Notes under the pieces: generated by a model
Told to the model about the DNA's origin: nothing
The model's input: only the letters and a program-made list of their open reading frames with translations
Database searches by the model: none
Made by a program: the position numbers and the translations under genes
In this document: positions 13,245 to 55,331 of the stretch, one piece after another
Layout of the letters: the number at the start of each line of letters is the position of its first letter
Numbering within the stretch: the first letter of the stretch is position 1
Assembly: GCA_963719555.1 (NCBI GenBank)
Contig: CAVRCL010000005.1
Coordinates: 201,606-265,605, forward strand
DNA from: Thermoanaerobaculia bacterium
Lineage (GTDB): Bacteria; Acidobacteriota; Thermoanaerobaculia; Multivoradales; JAGPDF01
Length of the DNA stretch: 64,000 nt
Reading direction: 5' to 3'

Positions 13245-13596
13245 GGGGGCGCACCGGGTTCGACGGGGAACAGTGCGGTTCGAGGGTTGCGCATCGGGTT
13301 TGCACCCGTAAAACGGCAAGTTATACCTGCCAACGACAACTACGCTCTCGCGGCTTAATTGACCGTGACGTTCCAGCCATGGGCCATTGTCCACGGCACG
13401 GGCTGGGGCGACGCTAAAGTGGACTGAACGCTGAGGTTGGTTCCGCTCCTCAGCGGGATCGTCAAATCGGAACTGGCGCTTGCGTAGGCGGCCTTCTGCA
13501 TTGCGCAAGGGCGATGACCATAAGTGAAGGCTATGTGCGTAGATACTTTCGGGACGCGTTTCTCGGACGTGGGTTCAATTCCCACCGCCTCCACCA
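13245..13596 (+). ncRNA. ssrA: tmRNA (SsrA), one-piece; tag peptide ANDNYALAA
   Basis: 5' GGGGGCGCACCGGGTTCGACGGG, tag ORF GCCAACGACAACTACGCTCTCGCGGCTTAA (13329-13358), tRNA-like 3' end GGACGTGGGTTCAATTCCCACCGCCTCCACCA. A CATAAT -10 box lies 7 bp upstream of +1. Confidence 0.9.
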
Positions 13597-27142: not shown

Positions 27143-28016
27143 TTCCTATCTCCAGTCGGTCCGGTCGGTTCCGTGATCCGCTCGTAAAGACGGATCAGCT
27201 CTTCTTCCGAGTGAAAGTGAATCCGAATCGTACCGCCTTTGCCGCGCCGGTCGATCTCGACCCGGGTCTGGAGCTGCCGCGTCAGACGTTCTGCGGCGGC
27301 CGCGGCATGCGGCTCGGGACTCTTCCTGGCGCGCTTCCCGGGCGCTTCGCACCCGGCTTCTTGCCGCTGGCGAGCTCCTCCATGCTGCGCGCCGAGAGCC
27401 CTTCCCGCAGGGCGCGTTCCGCGAGCTCCTGCTGGCGCTCGGGATCGTTGATCGTCAGCAGCGGCCGAACCTGCCCGGCGGTCAGCCGTCCGGAGCGCAG
27501 GAAGTCCTGGATGGCCGGCGGGAGCTTCAGGAGCCGCAGGGTGTTGGTGACCGCCGGTCGCGCCTTGCCGACCCGCAGCGCAATCTCCTCCTGCGACAGG
27601 TTGAAGTTCTCCTGCAGCGTGCGGTAGGCCTCGGCCTCTTCCATCGGGTTGAGGTCGGAGCGCTGGAGGTTCTCGACCAGGGCGAGCTCGAGAAGCTCGC
27701 GGTCGTCGCGCACCTGGCGCACCACCACGGGCACCACGGCGAGGCCCGCGCGCTGCGCCGCACGCCACCGCCGCTCGCCGGCAACGATCGTATAAGTCCC
27801 TTTTCCTGTTGGACTTACGATCAATGGCTGGATCATCCCCTGGGTTCGGATCGAGGCCGCAAGCTCGTCGAGCTGGGAATCGTCGAACTCGGTCCGCGGT
27901 TGTAGGCGATTGGGATGGATCTGGGCGATGGGGAGGCTGCGCGTCGCCTCGGCAGCTTCGCTTGGCGCAATCAAGGCGGAAAGACCACGTCCGAGCCCGC
28001 GCTTCTTGTCGTTCAT
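27139..28016 (-). CDS. parB: chromosome partitioning protein ParB; one frameshift near the C-terminus
   Basis: MNDKKRGLGRGLSALI, LQPRTEFDDSQLDELAASIRTQGMIQPLIV, AGERRWRAAQRAGL, and C-terminal GKGGTIRIHFHSEEELIRLYERI in a second frame. Confidence 0.85.
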
Positions 28017-28771
28017 CTGGTTCGCCTCAAGAGCTCTCTCGCCACGGCCAGGTAGGCTTCCGCCCCCCGGCTCTTGATGTCGTAGTGCAGGATGGAAAGG
28101 CCGTGGCTGGGCGCCTCCGCGAGCCGCACGTTGCGCGGCACGACGGCCTCGAAAACCTTGGCCGGAAAATGCTCCCGCACTTCGCGTTCGACGTCGCGCG
28201 TGAGCTTCATCCGGTCGTCGTACATGGTAAGCAGGATGCCGGCGAGCGCGAGCTCTGGATTGAGCGCGCTGGTCACCCGGCGGATCGTCGACAGCAGCTC
28301 GCTCACCCCTTCGAGCGCGAAGTACTCGCACTGCAGCGGAACCAGAACCCCGGTCGCCGCCACCAGCGCCAGGATCGTCAGGTGGCCGAGCGACGGCGGA
28401 CAATCGATGAGGATGAAGTCGTAGCGCTCGGCGATCGTCGCGAGCTGGCTGCCGAGAACCTCCTCCCAGCGCTCGAGCCCGACGAACTCCACTTCGACGC
28501 CGACCAGGTCACGATCCGCCGGCAGGAGGTCGAGAAACGGGAAACCGCTCGGCACGATGGCGGCCTCGATCGGGCTCTCCCCCACCAGCACATGGTAGAG
28601 ATGCGGTGCGCGCGCGGTTTGGCCGAGCCCGCGCGTCGCGTTGCCCTGCGGGTCGCAGTCGACCAGCAGGACGCGCTTCTCGAGCGCCGCCAGACCGGCG
28701 GCGAGGCTGATCGCGGTGGTGGTCTTGCCGACTCCACCCTTCTGGTTGGCGATGGCGAGAATCGCGGTCAT
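28013..28771 (-). CDS. parA: chromosome partitioning ATPase ParA
   Basis: MTAILAIANQKGGVGKTTTAISLAAGLAALEKRVLLVDCDPQGNAT. Walker A, and overlaps the parB start. Confidence 0.9.
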   Translation of the reverse strand: MTAILAIANQKGGVGKTTTAISLAAGLAALEKRVLLVDCDPQGNATRGLGQTARAPHLYHVLVGESPIEAAIVPSGFPFLDLLPADRDLVGVEVEFVGLERWEEVLGSQLATIAERYDFILIDCPPSLGHLTILALVAATGVLVPLQCEYFALEGVSELLSTIRRVTSALNPELALAGILLTMYDDRMKLTRDVEREVREHFPAKVFEAVVPRNVRLAEAPSHGLSILHYDIKSRGAEAYLAVARELLRRTR

Positions 28772-29460
28772 TCGGTTCCCTGCAAGCCGCTCGGCAAGCG
28801 ATACTCCCGGAGGAATCGGTGACTCCCGGAGAGCGCCAAGGTCCGCCCGGCGACGAACGGCGGGGGCGGCGGCTCGGCGACCTCGCCGCTCCACAGCAGA
28901 ACCTGGGCTCCCGGCCCGAGATGCGGGAGAAGGGCCGACCAGGTTTTCGCTTCGAGGCGCAGCGCCCGAACGGTCACGACGGCGATCGGCCCTTGCAGAT
29001 CGATTCGCTCGCTCCGGTCGGGGACATCCGCGAGAGAACGCGGTGAAACTCTAGCATTCAGGCACCGGCACGACAATCGCGCCCGCCGGGCGGCGGTCGA
29101 AAGGAAAGCCCACTTGCGCTCGCGCGCTTCGACCAGGGTGACCGCGATATCCGGACGTGCGGCAGCCAGAATCCAGCCCGGGAAGCCCGCGCCCGAGCCG
29201 AGGTCGAGCAGCCGGACGCCCGGCTCCCCCGGCTTTCCGCGCACTGCGCGGCAGCCAGGCCAGCGCCGCCAGCGATTCGGCATAGTGACGCTCGAAGAGC
29301 TCGCCAACCGCCCCGGGTCCGATGAGCGCGATCGTGCCGGCCCAGCGGCGCAGCTCTTCATAATGCGCGCAGAGCTTCTGCAACAGGTCGGTCGAAAGCT
29401 CTTCCGGCCAGAACTTCCCGAGCCTGCGGGAGAACTCGGACTCGGTCAGCGCCTGGTAGC
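28768..29460 (-). CDS. rsmG: 16S rRNA (guanine527-N7)-methyltransferase RsmG (GidB); N-terminal frameshift
   Basis: LLDLGSGAGFPGWILAAARPDIAVTLVEARERKWAFL (frame 28768..29361) and LCAHYEELRRWAGTIALIGPGAVGELFERHYAESLAAL (frame 29051..29383). Confidence 0.8.
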
Positions 29461-29588
29461 TCGGTCATCTGGGCCTCGAGCGTCTCGCTGGCGGGCAGGG
29501 ACGGCGGGCAACGGCGGCGGCAGACGTTCCACGTGAAACATCTGCCGGCACCCGGCAGCCCGAAGGGGCGACACCGGCCCGGGCGGCC

Positions 29589-30459
29589 TCAGCTCGGTTT
29601 CGGCTCTGTGGCGGGAGAGACCTGGATGCGCTTTTCGGCGCCGAAGCCCTGGCTCTCCGTCGTCACCCGCGGATCGTCCACCAGCGCCAGATGGACGATT
29701 CGCCGGTCGGCCGACGAGAGCGGCTCCAGGAGAACCGCCTCCCCGCACGCCACGGCCTCTTCGGCGGCGCGCTCGGCGAGCTGCCGCAGCTCCTCCTCGC
29801 GTGCGCTGCGCAGTCCGCCGCCCTCGACCCGGCAGCGCACCATGCGGCCGGCAAGGCCCCGAATGGCCCGCGGCGCCAGATGTTCGAGGTCGTCCAGAAA
29901 CTCCTCTCCGAGGTCGCGCAACAGCGTCTTCATCCGGGCCGCTGAGCGAGATGACCAACCGATCCGGCCTGCCGTTCGACCTTGACCGCCAACTCGAGAC
30001 CGGCGAGCGCCAGAAGGCGGCCGACGGCAACCGCGGCCGCTATCTCCGACTCCTCGTCTGGCGGCAGGAACGGCTCCACGGGCAGAAGGTCCGTGCGCGC
30101 GCTGCGCAGCGGGCGGCGGCCCTGGGCGCGCCGGTGCTGGCCGGACGGGACGGACGGGCCTCTTCGGCGCGCGCCGCCGGAGCGCCCGCGGCCGGGGCCA
30201 CCGCGGTCGGCGACGCCCTCTGGGCTGGTGCCGGCGCCGGTATCGGCGCTGGCGCTGGCGAGTCCGCACTCGCGCGCTTCATGCGCTGCGGCGCCGCCGG
30301 TTCGACTTCGACGATGAAGCGCCGCACCCGGTTCACGAACCCGTGGCGCTTGTCGTAGAGCCGGTAGGCGAGCTCGTCCGGTGCCAGGCCGTGGTAGCGC
30401 GCCGCCGCCATCAGCGCCTGCGGCAGGGTGTTGCCGGCAAAGAAGCGCCGGGTCTTCAT
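29589..30459 (-). CDS. jag: Jag/KhpB RNA-binding protein (Jag_N + KH + R3H); frameshifted
   Basis: N-terminus [34 protein letters not shown] (frame 30040..30459). C-terminus [31 protein letters not shown] (frame 29589..30269). Confidence 0.7.
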
Positions 30460-32248
30460 GCAGCTCGCCTCCTTTGCGCCCGCCGCCCTTGACGACCGCG
30501 ACCTCTTTGCGGCTCATGGTCCTTGACCGAGTTGTAGAGCTTCTGCTGCGCGATCGTCAGGACGTTGTTGGTCAGCCAGTAGAGCACCAGGCCGCTGGCG
30601 AAACCGAGCGAGAAGATCGTGAAGACCACCGGCAGGAACTGCATCAGGCGCTTCTGCACCGGATCGGGCGGCGCCGGGGTCATCCGTTGCTGGACGATCT
30701 GCGACAGGCCCATGACGATCGGCAGGACGTAGTAGGGGTCCGAGGCGGTGAGGTCGTGGATCCAGACCGATCCAGGGCGAGCGCCAGAGCTCGACGGCCG
30801 ACGAGAGCAGGCTGTAGAAGGCGAAGAACACCGGCAACTGAATCAGCATCGGGAAGCAGCCGCCGGCCGGGTTGACCCCCTCCGAGCGGTAGAGCCCCAT
30901 GATCTCTTCGTTCATCTGCTTCTGGGCGTCGGAGTTGAAGCGCCCGTTCTTGTCGCGCAGCTTCCCTTTCCAGCGCTCGCGCACCGCCTGCATCTTCGGA
31001 TTGAGCTTCTGCATCTTGCGCATCGACTTGAACGCCGAGATCGAAAGCGGCAGCAGCACGATCTTGAGCGCCACGGTCAGCAGGACGATCGCCCAGCCGT
31101 AGTTCGCCACCACGTTGGCGTAGATCCACTGCAGGCTGTAGAGCAGCGGCCGGGCGAGGAAGCCGAACATGCCGAGCTGCACCGTCTTGTCGAGGCCGTA
31201 GGGCATGGCGGTGAGGTGGTCGAGCTGCTTCGAGCCCCAGTAGGAGGTGGCCTCGATGCGGCCCTCGCGGGCCTCGATCTCGAGCACGAAGTCGCGCGGC
31301 AGGTCCTTGTCGGTGGCGGCGATCTCCGCCGGCGGCGCCGGCACCGGCCGCGGTGTCGAACGTGCGCTCCTCGCCGGCCGGAACCAGCATCACCGGCCGG
31401 AAGCGCGCCTTCGCCACCGGCTGGTGCGGCACCACCGCGGTCAGGAAGTAGGTGTCTTCGAGGCCGACCCAGTTGAGGGTCTCGCCGGGAGCTCGAGAAC
31501 GGCTCCTTGGCCTTGGCGGGGTCGAGCGTCTCCACCTTGCCGGCGACACTCCACACCGCCCGGCGCAGCTCGAACCGGCTGGCGAGCTCGTCTGCCGTGC
31601 GCGCCCGCAGGCCGGGGCCGAGGAGCAGATTGAAGCTCTGCTCGGCCGGGCGCGGCGACGACGATCTCCATGCGGCCGTCGGGGCCGAGGAGGAAGCTCT
31701 TCTCCACCTCGCCCTGGCTGCCGCGATAGACGAAGTCCAGCCGCTCGCCGTCCTTCGTCGTCTCGCGCGTGGCGACGAAGAGGGCGGCGTTCGCGGCCAG
31801 CGGCTCGCCGCCCGGCCCGAGCAGCGAGAACGGCAGCGGACTCTCCTTGCGTGGCGCGACCAGTTCGAGCTCGCCGCCGCGGGGAACCCGCCGCCGACCC
31901 GACGTTCATGCCTTTGACCCGCAGCGAGACCAGACGGGCGCCGCGGTTGGTGAACTCGGCCCGCAGGGCGTCGTTCTCGAGCACTTCGCACGCTCCTCGG
32001 CGGCCGCGACCGGCGGCAGCTCGGGGGCCGCCGCCGCGACGGCGCCGGCGCTGCCGGCGCGGCTGTCGCCAGGGGCACCGCGCCGGCGGCGGACCCGCTC
32101 GCGCCGGCGCGCTGGGGTCGCTGCCGGCGCGGCGGCGACGGCCGGCCGCGGCGGCGCGGGTCGCCTCCGGCGGCGGGAAGACCATCTGCCAGAGGAACAG
32201 GACCGCCATCGACAGGACAGCGGCAATCAACAGGCGCTTGTTATCCAA
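30456..32248 (-). CDS. yidC: membrane protein insertase YidC; multiple frameshifts
   Basis: [21 protein letters not shown] (TTG start ~32248). Core region [22 protein letters not shown]...[20 protein letters not shown]...[17 protein letters not shown]-terminus [27 protein letters not shown]. Confidence 0.8.
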
Positions 32249-32249
32249 G

Positions 32250-32480
32250 GGTCTCGGGCTCCAGAAAGGAAGGGTCAGCGACGGCCCGAGGCGGGCAAGT
32301 CGATACCGCCGGCGCCGAACGGCTGGCAACGCAACAGCCGTCCGGCAGGCGCTCAAGAGCCACGCCAGAGACCCTGTTCGAGCAGGGCCAGGCGGGCATA
32401 TTCGGAACAGGTCGGCGAGAAGCGGCAGGCCGGGGGCAAGAGCGGCGAAAGCCAGCGCTTGTAGCCTAGCGAGCAGGGCG
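32250..32480 (-). CDS. yidD: putative membrane protein insertion efficiency factor YidD; frameshifted, weak
   Basis: [27 protein letters not shown], in the position between rnpA and yidC. Similarity to YidD is only pattern-level. Confidence 0.35.
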
Positions 32481-32519
32481 ATCAGCAGCCGTTTCATGGC
32501 GGGCCCCGGTCGCCCGCGC

Positions 32520-32930
32520 GGGCGCGGACGGAAGGGGGACGCCGGCGGCAGGAGGCTGGCCAGCAGGCGTTCGAGCTCGCGGCGAAAGTCGGCGAAGTCG
32601 GCGCCCGCAGCGCCGGGCTTGAAGTGGGCGATGAGGTCGCTCGCCGGCAGGCGGTCGCGCTCCGGCCAGCGGCGGTAGATCTCCCGCGCCCAGCGCTTCA
32701 AACGATGGCGTTCTACGGCGCCGCCGACCTTGCGGCTCGCGGTCTGGCCGAACGCGGGGTGCACCCTGATCGTTGTCCAGGCTGTGGAGGACGAGGAAAG
32801 AGCCGCCCTTGCGCCGGCCTTCGGCGTAACAGCGGCGGTAATCTTCGGTCTTGCGAAGGGTTTGGCTGCGCCTGAATCGCTCACTGGTGATCGGCGGGGC
32901 CGGCGGGGCCACCGGGGCCTGCGCGGTCAT
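32520..32930 (-). CDS. rnpA: ribonuclease P protein component; one frameshift
   Basis: ATG at 32930. SERFRRSQTLRKTEDYRRCYAEGRRKGGSFLVLHSLDNDQGAPRV, then in another frame RKVGGAVERHRLKRWAREIYRRWPERDRLPASDLIAHFKPGAAGADFADFRRELERLLASL. Confidence 0.7.
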
Positions 32931-42369: not shown

Positions 42370-43499
42370 AACCCGGCCCGCGAGAGGACCTTGCGCGCGA
42401 CGCCGGTGAGCGGCAGTTCGCCGACGGCGGCAATGTTCCACCAGCCGGCTTCAGAGCGATCGGCGCCATCGGCGCCCCCGGCGGCCTCGGACACGATGTC
42501 GTCGCGGGCGCGGAACGACGCCCGCCGGACCTCGATATCGAACGTGCTCGTGGTGATCGCGTGGCGCAGGCGCGCGATCGGCGCACCGAGGACCCAGGAA
42601 CCCGAATACCGGCGCGCGAGCAGCGCCTCGGGCGCCGTCTCTGCGCCGAGCTCCACCAGCGGGAACTCCCAGAGTCCGGCGAGCTGTCCCGCCGCGCCGC
42701 TGCGGCGGAAGAGGAGCAGCTGCCGGTCACGCTCGACGAAAGCCGCCAACTGCAAGACCCGCGTAACCGCCTGCCTCTTGGTGCGCGCCGGGAAGCTCTC
42801 GGCTGCGCCCAGCGCCCGGGCCTTGCAGTCGTCGCCCAGCGGGCAGGCCGGGCAGGCGGGCGCTCGGGGAGTGCAAACCGTCGCGCCGAGCTCCATCAGC
42901 GCCTGATTGCTGTCGCCTGGCCGGAGCGGGTCGAGGAGCCGGGCGGCGAGCTCCAGCAGGGCCGAACGACCCTTCCTGCTCTTCTGCCCCGCGCTCCGCG
43001 CCGCGAGCCGGCAGAGCACGCGCTCGACGTTGCCATCCAGGACCGGGACGCGCTCGGAGAAGGCGATGCTGGCAATCGCCGCCGCGGTGTAAGGACCGAC
43101 GCCGGGCAGGCGCTCGAGCTCGTGGGCGCTCGCCGGCAGCTCGCCGCCGGCGGCGACGATCGCCTTCGCCGCGGCGAGCAGTCCGCGGCAGCGCCGGTAG
43201 TAGCCGAGGCCCGACCACAGGGCGAGGACCTCCGCCTCCTCGGCAGCGGCCAGGCTGGCGACGTCGGGAAACCGCGCCAGAAAGCGCAGATAATAGGGAA
43301 TTGCCGTTTCGACCCGCGTCTGCTGGAGCATGATCTCCGAGATCCAGACGGCGTAGGGGTCAGGGGGCGCGCCGACCGACCGCCAGGGCAGAAGCCGCTG
43401 GTGGTCGTCGTACCATTGAAGAAGTGCGTGCGAATCCGGCACGGTGGGCAGTGTATCCGCCCAAGCTGGGGATGAATCCGCCAAAACGGCCGCGCCCAA
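42357..43499 (-). CDS. mutY: A/G-specific adenine DNA glycosylase
   Basis: YAVWISEIMLQQTRVETAIPYY, LPGVGPYTAAAIASIAF, Fe-S cluster CTPRAPACPACPLGDDC, NUDIX-like C-terminus. The ORF-track start at 43499 is TTG; a GTG at ~43436 (VPDSHALLQWY) is an alternative. Confidence 0.85.
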   Translation of the reverse strand: MGAAVLADSSPAWADTLPTVPDSHALLQWYDDHQRLLPWRSVGAPPDPYAVWISEIMLQQTRVETAIPYYLRFLARFPDVASLAAAEEAEVLALWSGLGYYRRCRGLLAAAKAIVAAGGELPASAHELERLPGVGPYTAAAIASIAFSERVPVLDGNVERVLCRLAARSAGQKSRKGRSALLELAARLLDPLRPGDSNQALMELGATVCTPRAPACPACPLGDDCKARALGAAESFPARTKRQAVTRVLQLAAFVERDRQLLLFRRSGAAGQLAGLWEFPLVELGAETAPEALLARRYSGSWVLGAPIARLRHAITTSTFDIEVRRASFRARDDIVSEAAGGADGADRSEAGWWNIAAVGELPLTGVARKVLSRAGFQPG

Positions 43500-43507
43500 A
43501 AAGAGAT

Positions 43508-43545
43508 CGGCCCCGGGTTGAACCGGGGCCGAAGAGAACTACCGC
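43508..43545 (-). terminator. candidate intrinsic terminator on the minus strand (GGCCCCGG-GTTGAA-CCGGGGCC then GATCTCTTTTT)
   Basis: Perfect 8-bp GC stem with a 6-nt loop; on the minus strand it is followed by a T5 run. Lies at the 3' side of a low-GC ORF-free stretch. Confidence 0.4.
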
Positions 43546-43873
43546 AGGCGGGGGGTTCCGAGTTTGGTTGGCTCTTAAGTGGCTGTACCCCTGTTAGTTA
43601 GGGGACTTTGGCTGGCCTTGAAGAGGGGTGGAGATCCAACCGGATCTCGAAACTTCTGGGTGGGATAGTGATGGGGAAGTGGAACCTCCTCGCGCACGGT
43701 GATGATTAGGCTCTAAACTGTAGAGCAAAACGGATGCCAGGGCCGCCGTATTCCTGCCGGCCGCGGTTCTGCCCCAACGGGCAGCGGCGGCCGGGCTGGC
43801 TGCGCCGGGCCCGTTGCCTGGGCCGCCGGCCACGGGAGAACGCGGTATCTTCGCGCCAGGAGATTCATCCTCG

Positions 43874-45633
43874 ATGCGAAGGCTCTTCTTCCTGCTGCTT
43901 CTCGCCACCCTCCTGGGCGTGGTCCTCGCCGGCGCCGGCTATCTCTTCCTGCGCCACGAGGCTCCCGCCTGGGGCGGCGCCAAGATTCTCACCCTCACCC
44001 TGGACGCCCCGCTCCGGGAGCACGATGTCGAGCCGACCTTGCCGTTCGTCGGCGACGAGGAGCGCATCTCGCTCTCGCTGCTCTACCGCGGCTTCCTCGC
44101 TGCGCGCACCGACCCGTCCGTGGTCGCCGTGGCGCTCTACATTCACGACGCCTCTTTCGGGCTCGCTAAGGCGCAGGAGTTGCGGCGGCAGATCGCCGAA
44201 CTGGATCGCCTAGGGAAGCCCGTGCACTGCTACCTCGAAACCGCCGGCGAGGGCGGCAACGGCACGCTCGAGTACTACGTGGCCTCGGCCTGCTCGTCGC
44301 TCGCCCTGGCGCCGGCCGGCGAGATCAACCTCCTCGGCCTCTTCGCCGACAGCCCGTTCCTGCGCGGCGGTCTCGACCAAGCTCAAGATCGATCCGAGCT
44401 TTCTGACGGCCGGAGAATTCAAGAGCGCCGCCGAGATCTTCACCGAGGCGCGGCACTCGCCGGCCGCGAAGAGCGGCGCTCGAGGCCCTGCTGGACGGTT
44501 TCTACAACCAGATCGTGGACGGCATCGCCGCCGGCCGCGAGACCGAGCCGGCGGCCGTGCGCGCCTGGGTGGACGCCGCGCCGCTCTCCGCCGCGCGCGC
44601 GCTCGAGCTGGGCCTGGTCGACGAGCTCGCCTATCCGGACGAGTTTCGCGACGGTCTCGACGAGTCCGCCGACGGCGCGCCGCGCGATGCTCCAGCGCGT
44701 CGCCTTCCTCGACTATGCCCGCGACAGCTCCTCGCGTCTGCCGGGCGGCAGGCGGGTCGCGGTCCTCTTCGCCCAGGGCGCCATCGTCCGCGGCGACAGC
44801 GGTTCGGATCCGTTCGCCAGCGAGCGCCTGCTGGGCTCCGCCGACATGGCCACGGAGCTGCGCGACCTGGCCGAAGACGACGCGGTCGTGGCGGTCGTGC
44901 TGCGCATCGACAGCCCGGGCGGCTCGGCGCTCGCCTCCGACCTGATTCTGCGCGAGGTCGAGCTGCTGGCCGCCGAGAAACCGCTCGTCGTCTCGATGTC
45001 GGACGTCGCCGCTTCCGGCGGCTATTACATCGCGGCGCGCGCCTCCCGCATCGTCGCCGAGCCGGCGACGATCACCGGCTCGATCGGCGTGGTGACCGGC
45101 AAGCTCGCCACCGGCAGGTTCCAGGAAGAGCTCCTCGGCATCACCCACGATCCCCTGCAGCGCGGCGCGAACGCCGATCTCTATTCCGAGCCTGAAGCCG
45201 TTCGACGAACGCCAGACGGCGCTTGCTGCGCCGTCGCGTCGACGAAATCTACGGCCGCTTCCTCGAGCATGTCGCCGCCGGCCGCAAGCTCGACCGCAAA
45301 GCGGTGGAGGCGGTCGCGGGGGGCCGCGTCTGGACGGGCGCCGACGCCCTCGCCGTCGGGCTCGTCGATGAGCTCGGCGGACTGGATCGTGCCATCGCGC
45401 TCGCCCGCGAGGCGGCCGAAATTCCACCGTCCGAGAGCCTTCCCTTGATCTACCTGCCGCGACCGCCGAGCTTCTGGGAGCTCTTCTCCTCGAACCGCCA
45501 GCCCGATTTCGAGGCGCTCCTCTTCGAGCTCGTCGGGGCGCGGTTCGCAGAGCGTCTCGGCGCCCGGCTCCCGCGGCCGCAGCTCGAGCTCGAGCTCGAC
45601 TCTGCGTGGCAGGCGCTCGCCGACGGCCTATGA
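43874..45633 (+). CDS. sppA: signal peptide peptidase SppA (67K type, two S49 domains); several frameshifts
   Basis: MRRLFFLLLLATLLGVVLAGAGYLF N-terminal TM. HCYLETAGEGGNGTLEYYVASACSSLALAPAGEINLLGL; second domain VVLRIDSPGGSALASDLILRE...VVSMSDVAASGGYYIAARASRIVAEPATITGSIGVV; C-terminus GGRVWTGADALAVGLVDELGGLDRAIALAREAA. Confidence 0.8.
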
Positions 45634-45752
45634 GCGGCCGGGCTTGCGCGGTCGAGGTGCGGTATAGTCGCCGCCTCGGCTTCGTCCGCTCTCAAGGCCT
45701 CGAGAAAGATTTCCGCAAACTGTGGAAAACCTGTTGATATCCAGCCCAAGCC

Positions 45753-47110
45753 GTGCATTCCGACACTAGCTACTGGTCGCGCCTGCAGGAGCGCCTGCGT
45801 GCCATCCTCGAACCCGAGGAGTTCGCCACCTGGTTCGTTCCGCTCGTGGTGCAGAGCGAGAACGAAGCCGGCCTCGTTCTCGGCGCTCCCAACGAACGCT
45901 TCGTCCACACCCTCGAGGAGAGCTACCGCGACACGCTCGATCGCGAGGCCGGGCTGCTCTTCGACGAGTTCTTCTCCGTCACGGTGATCGCGCGAGGACG
46001 CGCTCGCCGACGCGGGTTCGTCGGCGGCTCCGGGCGCGCCCGGCGGGCCGGCGGTCGCGCGATCCTCGCGGGCGCCTTCCGCTCCGACCGGCGATCGCCT
46101 GAATCCCAAGTACCTCTTCGACACCTTCGTCGTCGGCAGCTCGAACCAGTTCGCCCACGCCGCCGCGCGCGCCGTCGCCGAGAGTCCCGGCGCACAGCTA
46201 CAACCCGCTCTTCCTCTACGGCGGCGTCGGGCTCGGCAAGACCCACCTGCTGCACGCCATCGGCCACCAGATCCTCGCATCGGCGGCCTGAGCTCAAGGT
46301 GCTCTATTTCACCGCCGAGCAGTTCGTCAACCAGTTGATCAACTCGCTGCGCTTCAAGTCGATGCACTCCTTCCGCGAGCGCTACCGGTCGATCGACGTG
46401 CTGCTGGTCGACGACATCCAGTTCCTCGCCAACAAGGAGCGCACGCAGGAGGAGTTCTTCCACACCTTCAACACGCTCTACACCAGCCAGCGGCAGATCA
46501 TCCTCTCGTCCGACTCGTCGCCGCGCAACATTCCGGCGATCGAGGAGCGTCTGCGCTCGCGTTTCGAGTGGGGCCTGATCGCCGACATCCAGGCGCCGGA
46601 TCTCGAGACCAAGGTGGCCATCCTGCGGCGCAAGGCCGACCAGGATGGCGTCGTCCTGCCCGACGACGTCGCTCTGTTCATCGCCTACCAGGTGAAGTCG
46701 AACGTGCGCGAGCTCGAGGGAATGCTCAATCGCGTCGTCGCTTTCTCCTCGCTCACCGCGAAGCCGCTGTCGCTCGAGCTCGCCAAGGAGACCCTGAAGG
46801 ACATCCTCCCCGAGGAGGGCCGCCGTGCGACGGCCGCCGACATCATCAAGTTCGTCGCCCGCCACTATGGGCTGAAGGTCAGCGAGATCAAATCGAAGTC
46901 GAACTCCAAGCAGATCGCTTTTCCGCGCCAGGTGGCGATGTTCCTCTGCAAGGAGCTCACCGAGCTCTCCTACCCGGAGATCGGCCGCCAGTTCAACGAC
47001 AAGCACCATTCGACCGTCATGTACTCGGTGGACAAGATCCTCAAGCTGCGCGCGACCGACGCCGAGCTCGAGCGCACCCTCGACGGAATGACGCGCCATC
47101 TCGGCCTGAG
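45753..47110 (+). CDS. dnaA: chromosomal replication initiator protein DnaA; frameshifts in the domain II/III region and loss of the stop at the 3' end
   Basis: N-terminus [37 protein letters not shown] (Walker A), [25 protein letters not shown] (Walker B/sensor), domain [46 protein letters not shown]. The upstream TGTGGAAAA box at 45723 reads as TTTTCCACA in reverse complement. Confidence 0.85.
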
Positions 47111-47112
47111 GT

Positions 47113-47345
47113 CCGCCCGCAGAAAACGCTGTGGAAATCCAGCGGAGACTTTGTTCAAAAGCGTCCGGGTCCTTCTTTTTCCGCCGCGATTCGTCTCGCT
47201 CTCCACAGGCGGTCTTCCACAGGCCAGAGCTGCAGGATCCTTTGCCCGCAGGCTTCCGAGAGGCTTTCCGCAGATCCGCCGGCATCTATGTACGACTACG
47301 GCTATGTTATGTTTTCATCTCTTCTAGTGCCCGGAGAATCGAGCC
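47113..47345. promoter_or_regulatory. candidate oriC / dnaN promoter region: three DnaA-box-like 9-mers plus an AT-richer unwinding stretch
   Basis: TGTGGAAAT (47130-47138), TCTCCACAG (47200-47208) and TCTTCCACA (47213-47221), each two or fewer mismatches from TTATCCACA/TGTGGATAA. AT-richer ATCTATGTACGACTACGGCTATGTTATGTTTTCATCTCTTCTAG at 47284-47327. Confidence 0.45.
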
Positions 47346-48464
47346 ATGGAACTACGCCTTCGGCGTGACCTCTTCCTCGCAGAACTGAGTCCGATGCAGG
47401 GGATCGTCGAACGTCGTACGACGATCCCGGTGCTGTCGCACATTCTCCTCAAGACCTCTGCGAAGAGCCTGCAGCTCGCCGCCACCGATCTCGACGTATC
47501 GCTGACCAGCGCGGTCGCGGCGGAAGTCGAAGGCCAAGGGGCGCTCGCTGTGCAGGCGAAGAAGTTCACCGAGATCGTGCGCTCGGTGGTGGCGGACGAG
47601 GTGCGGCTCAAAGTCGAAGACGACCGCACCCTGCTCATCCAGGCGGGCAAGGCGCGCTTCCGCATGCACGGTCTGCCGGCGGCCGACTTTCCCTCGCTAC
47701 CGACGGTCGAAGGCAAGGCGAAGATCGAGTTGCCGCTCGGAACACTGCCGCCGCCTGGTGAGCAAGATCCTCTTCGCGGTGTCGGGCGAGGACTCGCGCT
47801 TTCAGCTCTCCGGCGCGCTGCTGAAGATCAAGGGGAAGACGGTCGAACTGGTGGCGACCGACGGCCATCGGCTGGCGCTCATCGAGTCGCCGCACGACTT
47901 CAAGGGCGCGGTGGAGGATTCGGTGCTGGTGCCGCGCAAGGCCCTGCAGGAGCTGATGCGCATCGAGGGCGACGGCAGCGTCGTCTTCCGGCGCGGCGAG
48001 CACCACCTCTCGTTCTCGGTCGGCGGGCGCGAGATGACCTGCCGCGTGCTCGAAGGGCAGCTTCCCGGACTACGACCGGGTGATCTCGCGCGGCAACGAC
48101 AAGAAGGCGGTTCTCGACCGCAAACCCCTCGCCGAGGCGGTGCGCCGGGTGGCGATCATGACCGGCGAGAGGAACCGCGGCGTCCGCCTGGAGTTCGCCG
48201 GCGGCGAGCTCGCGATCGCCGCCGCCAACCCCGATCTCGGCGACGCCAGCGAGAGCGCTCGGCTGCGAAGTGACCGGCGGCGACATCAAGATCGGCCTCA
48301 ACCCCGACTACCTGGGGCATTTCCTCGACGCGGTCGAGACCGACAAGGTGCTGCTCGAGCTCAAGGACGAGAACAGCCAGTGCGTCGGTTCGCCGCAGCC
48401 CGAAGAGGGCAAAGGGGTGGCGGGCGAGCGCTACCTCTGCGTCATCATGCCGATGCGCATCTGA
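47346..48464 (+). CDS. dnaN: DNA polymerase III beta sliding clamp; 3 frameshifts
   Basis: MELRLRRDLFLAELSPMQGIVERRTTIPVLSHILLKT; frame 47758.. RFQLSGALLKIKGKTVELVATDGHRLA; frame 48080.. GVRLEFAGGELAIAAANPDLGDASE; frame 48270..48464 DIKIGLNPDYLGHFLDAVETDKVLLELKDENSQCV...ERYLCVIMPMRI. Confidence 0.85.
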
Positions 48465-48537: not shown

Positions 48538-49645
48538 TTGCCAGCACCCGGCGCCCTCTGCCGCCTCCGCCTGGCGCGCTTCCGGGCGCTCGCGCCGACC
48601 GACTGGCGACCGGCTGCCGGGCTGGAACCTGGTTCACGGCCCCAACGGCTCCGGCAAGAGCAGTCTTCTCGAAGCGATCTACCTCGCCGCGACCGGCAAG
48701 AGCTTCCGCACGCCCACCCTGGCCGAATGCTGCGCGCGCGGCGAGGAGAGCTTTCTCGTCCAGGCGGAGGTGGCGCGCGACGGCGTGTGGGACCTGGGGC
48801 TCGCCTACTCCCGGGAGGGTCGCCGGCTGACCCTGCAGGAGAAGCCGTCCACGGTCGCCGAGCACCTGGCGCTGCTGCCGGTCGTCGCCTGGAGCGAAGC
48901 CGAGCGCGACCTGGTCGCGGGCCCGCCGGCGGGGCGCCGGCGCTTCCTCGACCGCGCGGCGCTGCTGCCTCGAGCCGCCGCGCCTTGCCGAGCACGCGGA
49001 GCTCCACCGCGTTCTGGCGCAGAAGCGTCATCTGCTCGCGGCCCGCGGCCGGGCGCGCCGGACCTCGAGGCCTGGAACGAGCTCCTGGCGCCGCTCGTCG
49101 CCCGCCGCGCGGCGGAGCGCGCCGAGCTCGCGGCGCAGCTGGGAGCGGCGGCGCGCGAGCTCGCTCGCCCGCCAGGGGTCGTCTCTGCCGCCGCTGCGAC
49201 CTCACCTATCAACCGTCACCGTCGACGGCTCTCGCGGGCGCCGCGGCCGTCGCCCAGGCCCTCGCTCACGGCCGCGAGCGAGACGAGCGGGCGCGCGGCC
49301 AACCACTGCTCGGCCCGCAGCGCGATCGGGTCGAGATCCTGCTCGAGACGAGCGCGGCGCGCCGCTCGCCGTCGGCGGGCGAGCGCAAGGTGCTCGTGCT
49401 GTCGCTCCTCGCCGGCCTCGCCGGACTCCTCAGCGCCGCCGGCCGGGCACCGCTGGTGCTGCTCGACGACCTCGACGCCGAGCTCGACCGGGAGCGCCTC
49501 GCTCGGCCGCCGGCGCTCTCTCCGCCGCGCCGCAAATCCTCGCGACCGAGCAGCCGGCCGGAGGCCTTCGAAGGCCTTCGCCGCAAGGGGCTCGGCTGGG
49601 GGCTCGCGAAGGGCGTCTATCTCAGCCTCGGCGAAGGCCAACTAA
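48538..49645 (+). CDS. recF: DNA replication and repair protein RecF; frameshifted
   Basis: LPGWNLVHGPNGSGKSSLLEAIYLAATGKSFRT (Walker A, frame 48080..), SAGERKVLVLSLLAGLAGLL...PLVLLDDLDAELD (signature and Walker B, frame 48538..). Confidence 0.75.
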
Positions 49646-49675
49646 CTTATTTATTTTCAGCACTTTGGCGCTTGT

Positions 49676-52203
<2,528 letters not shown>

Positions 52204-52464
52204 ATGCCGGAGATCAGACGGTTTCTGGGCATTGTGATTTCGATGTACTGGGACGACCACCAGCCGCCGCACTTTCATGCGAAGTACGGAAGTTCTCGTA
52301 TTACGGTGGCGATTCAGGACGGGGTGATTGAAGGGGAGTTTCCGAAGCGGGCGCGGGGGCACGTGTTGGAGTGGCTGGAACTTCACCGGGACGAGCTCAT
52401 GGAGGATTGGAACTTGATTCGTGAGCGACAGGCGCCCAAGCCGATCGCGGGGCTCGAGCAGTGA
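52204..52464 (+). CDS. DUF4160-family protein
   Basis: Intact 86 aa. [29 protein letters not shown] is the hallmark of DUF4160. The ATG directly abuts the gyrB TAG stop. Local GC ~53-55%, against ~70% flanking. Confidence 0.8.
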
Positions 52465-52724
52465 TCGTCTGGGTGACAAAGGCGAAGCCCCTGGGGGGCT
52501 ATCGCGTCTGGCTCGAGTTCAATGACGGGCTGCGAGGCGAGATGGATCTCGAGGATCGACTCTTCGGGCCGGTGTTCGAGCCCCTCAAAGACCCCTCGTA
52601 CTTCGGGCGCCTGGAGGTCAATGAGGAACTGGACACGATCGTCTGGCCCAACGGCGCCGACTTCGCGCCCGAGTTCCTCCACCAGCGCCTGCAGCGCAGT
52701 GCCGCCGAGGTCGCGGAACCGTAG
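52461..52724 (+). CDS. DUF2442-family protein
   Basis: Intact 87 aa. [16 protein letters not shown]...[25 protein letters not shown] is typical of DUF2442. 4-nt overlap with the DUF4160 gene. Confidence 0.8.
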
Positions 52725-52817
52725 CGCTCGACGAACGGGGCGAGAAGGCTCCGAACGGAACGAACATTCACCGCGGCGTCCGTTGACGTGCGCGGGTAGG
52801 AAATCGAGGAGGACGGA

Positions 52818-55331
<2,514 letters not shown>

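Follow-up and report, generated by a model that had tools for sequence, protein, structure and literature searches.

Does the gap between dnaA and dnaN in this stretch of DNA serve as an origin of chromosome replication? The initial annotation placed a candidate oriC there. That proposal is supported by a box density above chance and by a layout that is conserved in relatives, and we consider it likely that the gap (~47110-47345) is the chromosomal replication origin, or its unwinding half, of the same kind as incC of Bacillus subtilis. The window, i.e., the whole 64-kb stretch that was analyzed, has a GC content of ~70% and comes from an Acidobacteriota genome that is Thermoanaerobaculia-like. 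Based on the in-frame C-terminal part of DnaA, the nearest relatives are Acidobacteriota MAGs, namely L001 (76% identity), L002 (Thermoanaerobaculia, 73%) and L003/L004 (65%); other classes of Acidobacteriota come next.

Gene context and the borders of the gap

According to a codon-position GC model, the reading frame changes at intervals of a few hundred bases, without a change of strand, all along the window. When the DnaA proteins of L001 and L002 are aligned to the window with tblastn, the frames run 3>1>2>3 and the alignment ends at 47102; the DnaN proteins of both relatives give the same succession of frames, that is, three +1 frameshifts in dnaN. The indel rate of the assembly amounts to roughly 1 per 300-400 bp. 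Because the essential genes gyrB and gyrA are equally broken, we interpret these frameshifts as assembly indel errors, not as pseudogenes; at this rate, however, distances and individual bases within the gap can be trusted only in part. For the gene calls, each coding segment was translated in its own frame, the pieces were joined, and the result was scanned with Pfam. The genes of the window are as follows.

27353-29934, minus strand: Jag (R3H), RsmG (GidB), ParA and ParB (Pfam on frameshift-corrected translations)
30508-32771, minus strand: RNase P protein (RnpA) and YidC (Pfam on frameshift-corrected translations)
33138-33000, minus strand: rpmH (motif search)
yidD (motif search)
TadA and DnaX-YbaB-RecR (Pfam on frameshift-corrected translations)
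Two tRNA-Ser, SRP RNA and tmRNA (ARAGORN and Rfam)
Directly upstream of dnaA: S49 peptidase, sppA (Pfam)
45753-47109, plus strand: dnaA (Pfam Bac_DnaA, Bac_DnaA_C and DnaA_N; tblastn; three-frame translation)
47333-48461, plus strand: dnaN with its ribosome-binding site (Pfam DNA_pol3_beta domains 1-3; tblastn with the DnaN of L002)
In this order: DnaA, DnaN, RecF, GyrB, a DUF4160/DUF2442 pair and GyrA (Pfam)

The order of genes in the window is parB-parA-rsmG-jag, yidC-yidD-rnpA-rpmH, other genes, and sppA-dnaA-dnaN-recF-gyrB-gyrA. The gap thus lies between dnaA and dnaN, with recF, gyrB, gyrA and the rpmH and parAB blocks around it. The canonical origin-region genes that had been listed initially are borne out by Pfam on the corrected translations and, for rpmH and yidD, by motif search. 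The two tRNA-Ser genes, tadA, the SRP RNA and dnaX-ybaB-recR are likewise present, and the distance between the rpmH and dnaA blocks, estimated initially at ~12 kb, measures ~12.6 kb from rpmH to dnaA.

The borders of the gap depend on how dnaA is read. In this gene, +1 frameshifts occur between 45980 and 46096, near 46188 and near 46282, and a fourth one is found at the stop. The expected stop codon, TGA at 47107-47109, sits in the +1 frame, and the DnaA proteins of relatives end at ~47102-47105; the uncorrected frame stays open until the TAG at 47325-47327. Therefore, the 240-bp dnaA-dnaN spacer described initially is real only after one frameshift, that at the dnaA stop, has been repaired, and does not exist in the sequence as written. 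On the other side, the ribosome-binding site of dnaN is GGAGA at 47333-47337, and its ATG is at 47346.

DnaA boxes on both sides of dnaA

The DnaA box of the phylum, as read from relatives, is TTTTCCACA. The gap contains two opposed arrays of boxes and a tandem box.

47118-47160, minus strand: box array, with spacings of 12 and 22 bp
47118, minus array: box TTTTCTGCG, 3 mismatches
47130-47138, minus strand: box ATTTCCACA (TGTGGAAAT on the plus strand), 1 mismatch
47152, minus array: box TTTTGAACA, 2 mismatches
47177-47221, plus strand: box array, with spacings of 22 and 14 bp
47177, plus array: box TTTTCCGCC
47199-47207, plus array: box CTCTCCACA
47213-47221, plus array: box TCTTCCACA
47264-47280, plus strand: tandem box, CTTTCCGCA and AGATCCGCC, overlapping by one base

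The first unit of the tandem, CTTTCCGCA at 47264-47272, has 2 mismatches to TTTTCCACA and 3 to TTATCCACA, the E. coli consensus; the second, AGATCCGCC at 47272-47280, is degenerate and borderline, with 4 mismatches to TTATCCACA and 5 to TTTTCCACA. Overall, six sites in the gap have at most 2 mismatches to TTTTCCACA. This number is the maximum among all 241-bp stretches of the 64 kb, and it is reached in none of 300 simulated sequences. All three of the DnaA-box-like 9-mers pointed out initially are present, each with two mismatches to the E. coli consensus, but the lineage consensus raises their number to six, and one of them, TCTCCACAG, is one base off the register of CTCTCCACA. With the E. 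coli consensus alone, a count of three boxes is marginal, because at least three boxes with at most 2 mismatches are found in some 241-bp stretch in 24 of 300 simulated 64-kb windows (8%). That is, the density of boxes in the gap is exceptional when scored with TTTTCCACA, and marginal when scored with the E. coli consensus.

In the window, 7 matches to TTTTCCACA with at most 1 mismatch were counted where 1.8 would be expected, 4 of them within 45721-47221. A 1-mismatch match at 46456-46464 falls in the codons of the conserved EEFFHTF motif of DnaA; because most relatives have it at the corresponding position, we attribute it to coding constraint. The check by box clustering that had been suggested initially shows the gap cluster to be the densest in the 64 kb. 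Near rpmH, near parB, and in the mutY-sppA and recF-gyrB gaps, at most one weak box each was found; that of the rpmH region has 2 mismatches and lies inside coding sequence.

The gaps of L001, L002 and L083/L084 repeat the same order of elements, namely minus array, plus array, tandem box, CTA block, T-rich tract and dnaN; L001 and L002 share this layout though their DnaA proteins are only 73-76% identical to that of the window. L083 and L084 are soil-metagenome contigs, which were found with a pattern drawn from the CTA block described below; the four other matches to this pattern (L081, L082, L085 and L086) are chance hits in unrelated DNA, i.e., 2 of the 6 are homologous origins. Boxes on the same strand are spaced mostly by 11 or 22-24 bp in the relatives, and the minus arrays of L002, L083 and L001 are homologous to that of the window; their spacings are 11 and 22-24 bp, plus 16 bp in L001. 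An RNA element in the gap was also considered and rejected: the gap is less structured than its shuffles (z = +1.71), three sequences contain no compensatory changes in the gap, and no Rfam family matches it at the gathering threshold or at E up to 1.

A second group of boxes precedes dnaA.

45709-45740: triple box ATTTCCGCA-aac-TGTGGAAAA-cc-TGTTGATAT
45709-45717, plus strand: box ATTTCCGCA
45721-45729, minus strand: box TTTTCCACA (TGTGGAAAA on the plus strand)
45732-45740, minus strand: box ATATCAACA

The near-consensus box noticed initially in the dnaA promoter is therefore present, but at 45721-45729 rather than 45723-45731, and as one of three. The same succession, three boxes separated by 3 nt and then 2 nt, is repeated with the same orientation in L001 and L002, and similar triples are found in several other classes (L008, L023, L024 and L027). 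The triple box lies downstream of a -10-like element, TATAGT, and precedes the start codon of dnaA by 13-44 nt; this placement fits autorepression of dnaA. Judging from the sequence, the triple box probably serves DnaA in repressing dnaA, and it possibly constitutes the second half of a two-part origin. The distribution of boxes is indeed that of a bipartite origin, with boxes on both sides of dnaA (45709-45740, and six at 47118-47272).

The CTA-rich block and the AT-rich tract

Between the tandem box and dnaN, the gap contains three further elements.

47281-47285, plus strand: spacer ggcat, 5 nt, from the tandem box to the first CTA
47286-47311, plus strand: CTA-rich block CTATGTACGACTACGGCTATGTTATG, DnaA-trio-like (bottom strand 3'-GAT...)
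47303-47327: AT-rich, T-rich tract with 28% GC, a candidate DNA-unwinding element, which overlaps the end of the CTA block

The basal unwinding system (BUS) of B. subtilis consists of DnaA-boxes 6 and 7, DnaA-trios and an AT-rich region (PMC8287927, PMC6669920). In the published search rule, a box with at most 2 mismatches to the standard motif, or to the species-specific motif if known, is separated by a spacer of 0-16 bp from an unbroken run of three or more DnaA-trios (3'-NAN-5', which is NTN on the strand of the box); a second, tandem box with at most 4 mismatches is optional (PMC8287927). We implemented this rule directly and ran it on the window and on Acidobacteriota dnaA-dnaN gaps. The box is provided in the window by CTTTCCGCA, with its 2 mismatches to TTTTCCACA, which Pelliciari et al. 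2021 give as the Koribacter motif (supplementary table, PMC8287927). The tandem box is borderline, and its geometry, a 17-nt tandem with a one-base overlap, recurs in L002 and L083 (TTTTCCCCGTTTCCGCA), in L006, and in L048, a member of the Bacillaceae. From the end of the first box (47272) to the first CTA (47286) the spacer is 13 nt, and 13 bp is the commonest BUS spacer between box and first trio (PMC8287927). The polarity is also that of a BUS, with a box in the TTATCCACA sense, then trios, then AT-rich DNA along one strand; the Bacillaceae L043 and L048 share it, as do all Acidobacteriota matches with at least 4 trios.

The trios themselves depart from the rule, in that three consecutive NTN triplets were not found within 16 nt of any box in the gap. 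The register of the window is interrupted and reads GTA CGA CTA CGG CTA. In L002 and L083, the same register reads GTA CTA CTA CGK CTA; L002 passes the rule, and L084 carries the same triplets. Given the quality of the assembly, a base-call error could account for the interruption. Because the trio rule fails, we describe the gap of the window as BUS-like and homologous to BUS-bearing origins, rather than as a strict member of the class. Formal matches to the rule number four in the 64 kb, two upstream in the triple box and two in the coding sequence of dnaA, and none is conserved as trios.

The same junction is widespread in the phylum. In 15 other Acidobacteriota gaps, formal modules with at least 4 trios are found, all on the dnaA-to-dnaN strand, with a succession of box, mostly 12-13 nt, and CTACT in constant orientation; modules of at least 4 trios on the opposite strand of Acidobacteriota gaps were not found. 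A T- or AT-rich tract follows the trios, ahead of dnaN, in many lineages of the phylum. The Bacillaceae loci L043 and L048 have the textbook form, TTATCCACATATCCACA-agac-CTACTACTATTACTACT-AT-rich, and the BUS that Pelliciari et al. published for Koribacter is this element as well.

The CTA block is the best-conserved piece of the gap, with 85% identity to L002 and 88% to L083; in the left part of the gap, identity drops to 45-47%. A block CTATGTACNACTACGNCTATG, with CTA repeated in steps of 3 and 6 nt, is common to the window, L002 and L083/L084; L001 matches it loosely, and L003 and L004 more loosely still. Since CTATGTACNACTACGNCTATG is shared and lacks an uninterrupted trio run, a variant recognition element may exist in this lineage. 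We regard it as doubtful, however, that the block is a variant single-strand recognition element that defines a distinct BUS sub-type of the Thermoanaerobaculia-like group. If it were, DnaA would use a different register, or a second factor would bind the CTATG direct repeat.

Past the CTA block, the T-rich tract occupies 47312-47327. The AT stretch of the gap had been annotated initially as the most AT-rich in the neighborhood; at 28% GC, 47303-47327 ranks second in AT content among the 25-mers of the 64 kb, behind 49642-49666 in the recF-gyrB gap (24% GC). The latter was rejected as an origin, as it is accompanied by one 2-mismatch box only and lies just upstream of gyrB. The tract of the dnaA-dnaN gap directly follows the last box and the CTA block, and is the predicted site of unwinding. 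It is short (~25-40 nt) and ends 5 nt before the ribosome-binding site of dnaN, a position that would suit promoter or leader DNA just as well.

Probable origin function, alternatives and known systems

We infer that DnaA binds in the gap, that the DNA is unwound there and that the origin fires from it, by a mechanism that can be outlined as follows. DnaA would occupy the stronger boxes, ATTTCCACA (47130) and TCTTCCACA (47213). ATP-DnaA would fill the weaker boxes, which are mostly spaced by helical repeats, in the two opposed arrays, and the plus array would run on into the tandem box (47264-47280). Starting from this box, the DnaA oligomer may extend onto one strand of the CTA block at 47286-47311, whose bottom strand carries trios of the 3'-GAT type. 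Stretching of this strand would open the adjoining T-rich tract at 47303-47327, where the helicase would be loaded. At the triple box at 45709-45740, DnaA would repress its own gene, and this element may in addition be a second half of the origin.

Might the boxes instead be transcriptional operators only, for dnaA and dnaN, with the true origin elsewhere, in or outside the window? DnaA boxes around dnaA mediate autoregulation in many bacteria, the triple box has a -10-like element on one side and the dnaA start on the other, and the AT-rich tract abuts the ribosome-binding site of dnaN. The GC skew is of limited help in this regard. Local skew is anticorrelated with the coding strand (r = -0.53), and the minimum of the cumulative skew lies at 54.9 kb when raw and at 52.2 kb when corrected for strand. 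Because skew tracks gene strand, the raw minimum mostly marks the end of the plus-strand block from dnaA to gyrA. The strand-regressed skew changes from negative to positive, which is the polarity of an origin, with a best fit at 51.5 kb (F = 7.4 at best). This best fit, 4-7 kb to the right of the gap, would suit an origin elsewhere; however, the change fits nearly equally well anywhere within 47.5-58.5 kb, and the fit at the gap is negligibly below the best. Over 64 kb, the skew is thus too coarse a guide: it agrees with an origin in the gap without singling the gap out. Six boxes in opposed arrays, mostly with helical-repeat spacing, together with a conserved module of box, spacer, CTA block and T-rich DNA whose orientation is fixed across the phylum, are the architecture of an origin rather than of operators, and a second cluster of boxes was not found within the 64 kb. 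Moreover, DoriC and the BUS work place the origin of Candidatus Koribacter versatilis Ellin345 at a position consistent with the same gap (predicted oriC, DoriC ORI20010193; BUS at 1616-1658 of the chromosome record; PMC8287927). We thus consider it unlikely that the boxes are operators only.

A related possibility concerns the CTA/T-rich block, which might mainly be the dnaN promoter or the site of another regulator, while the origin boxes may still function. The distance from the block to the dnaN start downstream is 35-60 nt, the block contains the direct repeat CTATGT (at 47286 and 47302) and a -10-like hexamer, TATGTT, and the window fails the rule of three trios. A scan of 45400-47500 for promoters of the sigma-70 type, on the other hand, gave no match; other Acidobacteriota and the Bacillaceae have at the homologous position a clear CTACTACTA trio run, 12-13 nt past the box; and L002 and L083 carry GTA CTA CTA in the same register. 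That the block is mainly a promoter or a regulator's site is therefore improbable in our assessment, although a promoter role would be compatible with function of the gap as an origin.

We also weighed whether unwinding might take place at the cluster upstream of dnaA, with the boxes in the gap as the auxiliary half of a two-part origin. The sole perfect box (TTTTCCACA, 45721-45729) is located upstream, and the formal BUS rule is satisfied there on the minus strand by a box, 10 nt, and ATC TTT CTC. Neither L001 nor L002 keeps this run, and we regard the match as due to chance; the region lacks CTA-type trios and an AT-rich tract past the boxes themselves, and spans only ~120 bp, bounded by sppA. 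A denser cluster upstream of dnaA or beside rpmH, which according to the initial annotation would have argued against the gap, was not found: the region upstream of dnaA contains three boxes, and neither a conserved AT-rich element nor conserved trios, and the rpmH region contains the single 2-mismatch box mentioned above. Unwinding upstream of dnaA is thus very unlikely. Lastly, the notion that a GC-rich genome yields these boxes by chance is effectively refuted: although simulation yields three E. coli-consensus boxes in the 8% of windows mentioned above, it never yields six lineage-consensus sites, and the position, orientation and spacing of the boxes are kept in relatives.

The reading that we favor, an origin or its unwinding half in the dnaA-dnaN gap, locates the likely start of replication in an uncultured, high-GC acidobacterial lineage. 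It can be used in orienting genomes, in checking assemblies and in deriving growth rates from metagenome coverage, and it adds lineages of Acidobacteriota to the evidence for a widespread module of box, trios and AT-rich DNA; knowledge of how bacterial origins work stays unchanged. A literature search for an experimentally studied acidobacterial origin found none. The comparison below is with origins known from other phyla and with a predicted one from the same phylum.

In E. coli, oriC lies between gidA and mioC and contains DnaA-oligomerization regions, a left and a right array with opposed boxes two bases apart, together with AT-rich 13-mer repeats, sites for IHF and Fis, and clusters of GATC. 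The gap of the window resembles it in having two opposed arrays of strong and weak boxes, spaced mostly by 11 or 22 bp. Unlike oriC of E. coli, it lies beside dnaA, and 13-mers, IHF/Fis sites and GATC clusters were not seen in it. In Mycobacterium and Streptomyces, whose genomes are also of high GC content, the origin is located in the dnaA-dnaN gap, with many degenerate boxes and a short AT-rich stretch that is the only readily melted DNA; these actinobacterial boxes resemble TTGTCCACA, and their number is higher, in gaps of greater length. The window shares with these high-GC Actinobacteria the position in the gap, the degenerate boxes and the short AT-rich stretch, a likeness in layout. The arrangement of two clusters around dnaA is that of B. 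subtilis and Helicobacter pylori.

Among the closest known counterparts is oriC of B. subtilis, in which incA/B lie upstream of dnaA and incC lies between dnaA and dnaN (PMC8287927, PMC6669920). Here too, clusters of boxes flank dnaA on both sides, and a tandem box in the TTATCCACA sense, a short GC spacer, CTA triplets on the same strand and an AT-rich tract precede dnaN; the junction is directly comparable with those of the Bacillaceae L043 and L048. The window differs from B. subtilis in its box consensus, TTTTCCACA, with TTTCCGCA-like boxes nearest the trios, in its interrupted trio run, and in its AT-rich tract, which is short, with 28-35% GC in a genome of 70% GC. Koribacter belongs to the same phylum and has the same box, TTTTCCACA, and its BUS comprises a tandem box, a 4-nt spacer and CTA-type trios, a type of module also found in the Terriglobales gaps L014, L017, L019 and L021. 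In Koribacter there are seven uninterrupted trios (CTACTGTTACTACTGTTTTTA), whereas the window and its nearest relatives carry the variant block CTATGTACNACTACGNCTATG. Taken together, these comparisons support an origin of the common dnaA-dnaN type with a Bacillus-like unwinding module, as already predicted for other Acidobacteria, and mildly unusual only in the interrupted trio block common to its lineage.

Frameshifts and the reading frame across the proposed origin gap

Frameshifts occur throughout the window, at about one per 300-500 bp, and the essential genes are all broken by them. In dnaA (45753-47109) and dnaN (47346-48461) every frameshift is of the +1 type (frames 3>1>2>3), and the gyrB/gyrA genes (49703-55331) are a further example of broken genes. 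Because every essential gene is affected, the frameshifts point to systematic single-base insertion errors of the assembly rather than to pseudogenes. The dnaA frame as written lacks a stop codon where one is conserved, and over 47100-47327 it crosses the entire gap between dnaA and dnaN, i.e., the proposed origin, to a TAG at 47325-47327. A gene caller would report a 524-residue fusion ORF (45753-47327), and the intergenic region would be masked.

Within this gap, a short inverted repeat (CGCTG...CAGCG, 47127-47144) holds the best DnaA box, TGTGGAAAT, in its loop. The same repeat was picked up by a terminator scan, on the minus strand.

Base composition and strand skew

At 24% GC, 49642-49666 in the 68-bp gap between recF and gyrB is the lowest-GC 25-mer anywhere in the window. 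Only one weak DnaA-box-like match, TTTTCAGCA, is found at this site. The coding strand is C-rich, and over the whole window GC skew and coding strand are anticorrelated (r = -0.53); therefore, raw skew curves at the scale of the window follow gene orientation, not replication direction.

Other features of the window

The initial annotation placed an SRP RNA next to dnaX-ybaB-recR, and a small SRP RNA is indeed found directly upstream of these genes. The RNA genes, and two small genes between gyrB and gyrA, are as follows:

13245-13596, plus strand, tmRNA gene, with tag ANDNYALAA
34279-34378, plus strand, small SRP RNA, immediately 5' of dnaX-ybaB-recR
52204-52464, plus strand, DUF4160 gene
52461-52724, plus strand, DUF2442 gene, overlapping the DUF4160 gene

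The last two (52204-52724) look like a two-gene cassette inserted into an otherwise canonical gyrB-gyrA pair. The roughly 470 bp at 43414-43881, which lie between mutY and the divergently oriented sppA, carry no coding signal and no DnaA boxes, and their Rfam matches are all sub-threshold (L31 leader-like and BjrC68). Also sub-threshold is a match to AsdA, an antisense RNA of the dnaA mRNA, at 46217-46288 on the minus strand, inside the dnaA coding sequence (27 bits versus a gathering score of 52); this match probably reflects conserved dnaA sequence only.

Variation in the proposed origin region among Acidobacteriota

In four loci from Bryobacterales and other Acidobacteriota (L033, L036, L053 and L055), a near-perfect extended -10 element (TTGCTATAAT or TTGTATAAT) is located about 100-170 nt 5' of dnaN. 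In three of the four, this element directly precedes a DnaA or DnaA-like box and a CTATGAAT-type block. The arrangement suggests that in these lineages a promoter is embedded in the origin. The dnaA-dnaN gaps of three Blastocatellia-type loci (L006, L012 and L015) contain at least 10 TTTTCCACA-type boxes, many more than in the lineage of the window. Within the phylum, the junction of DnaA box, short spacer and DnaA-trios ahead of dnaN is constant, but the number of boxes in the gap is highly variable.
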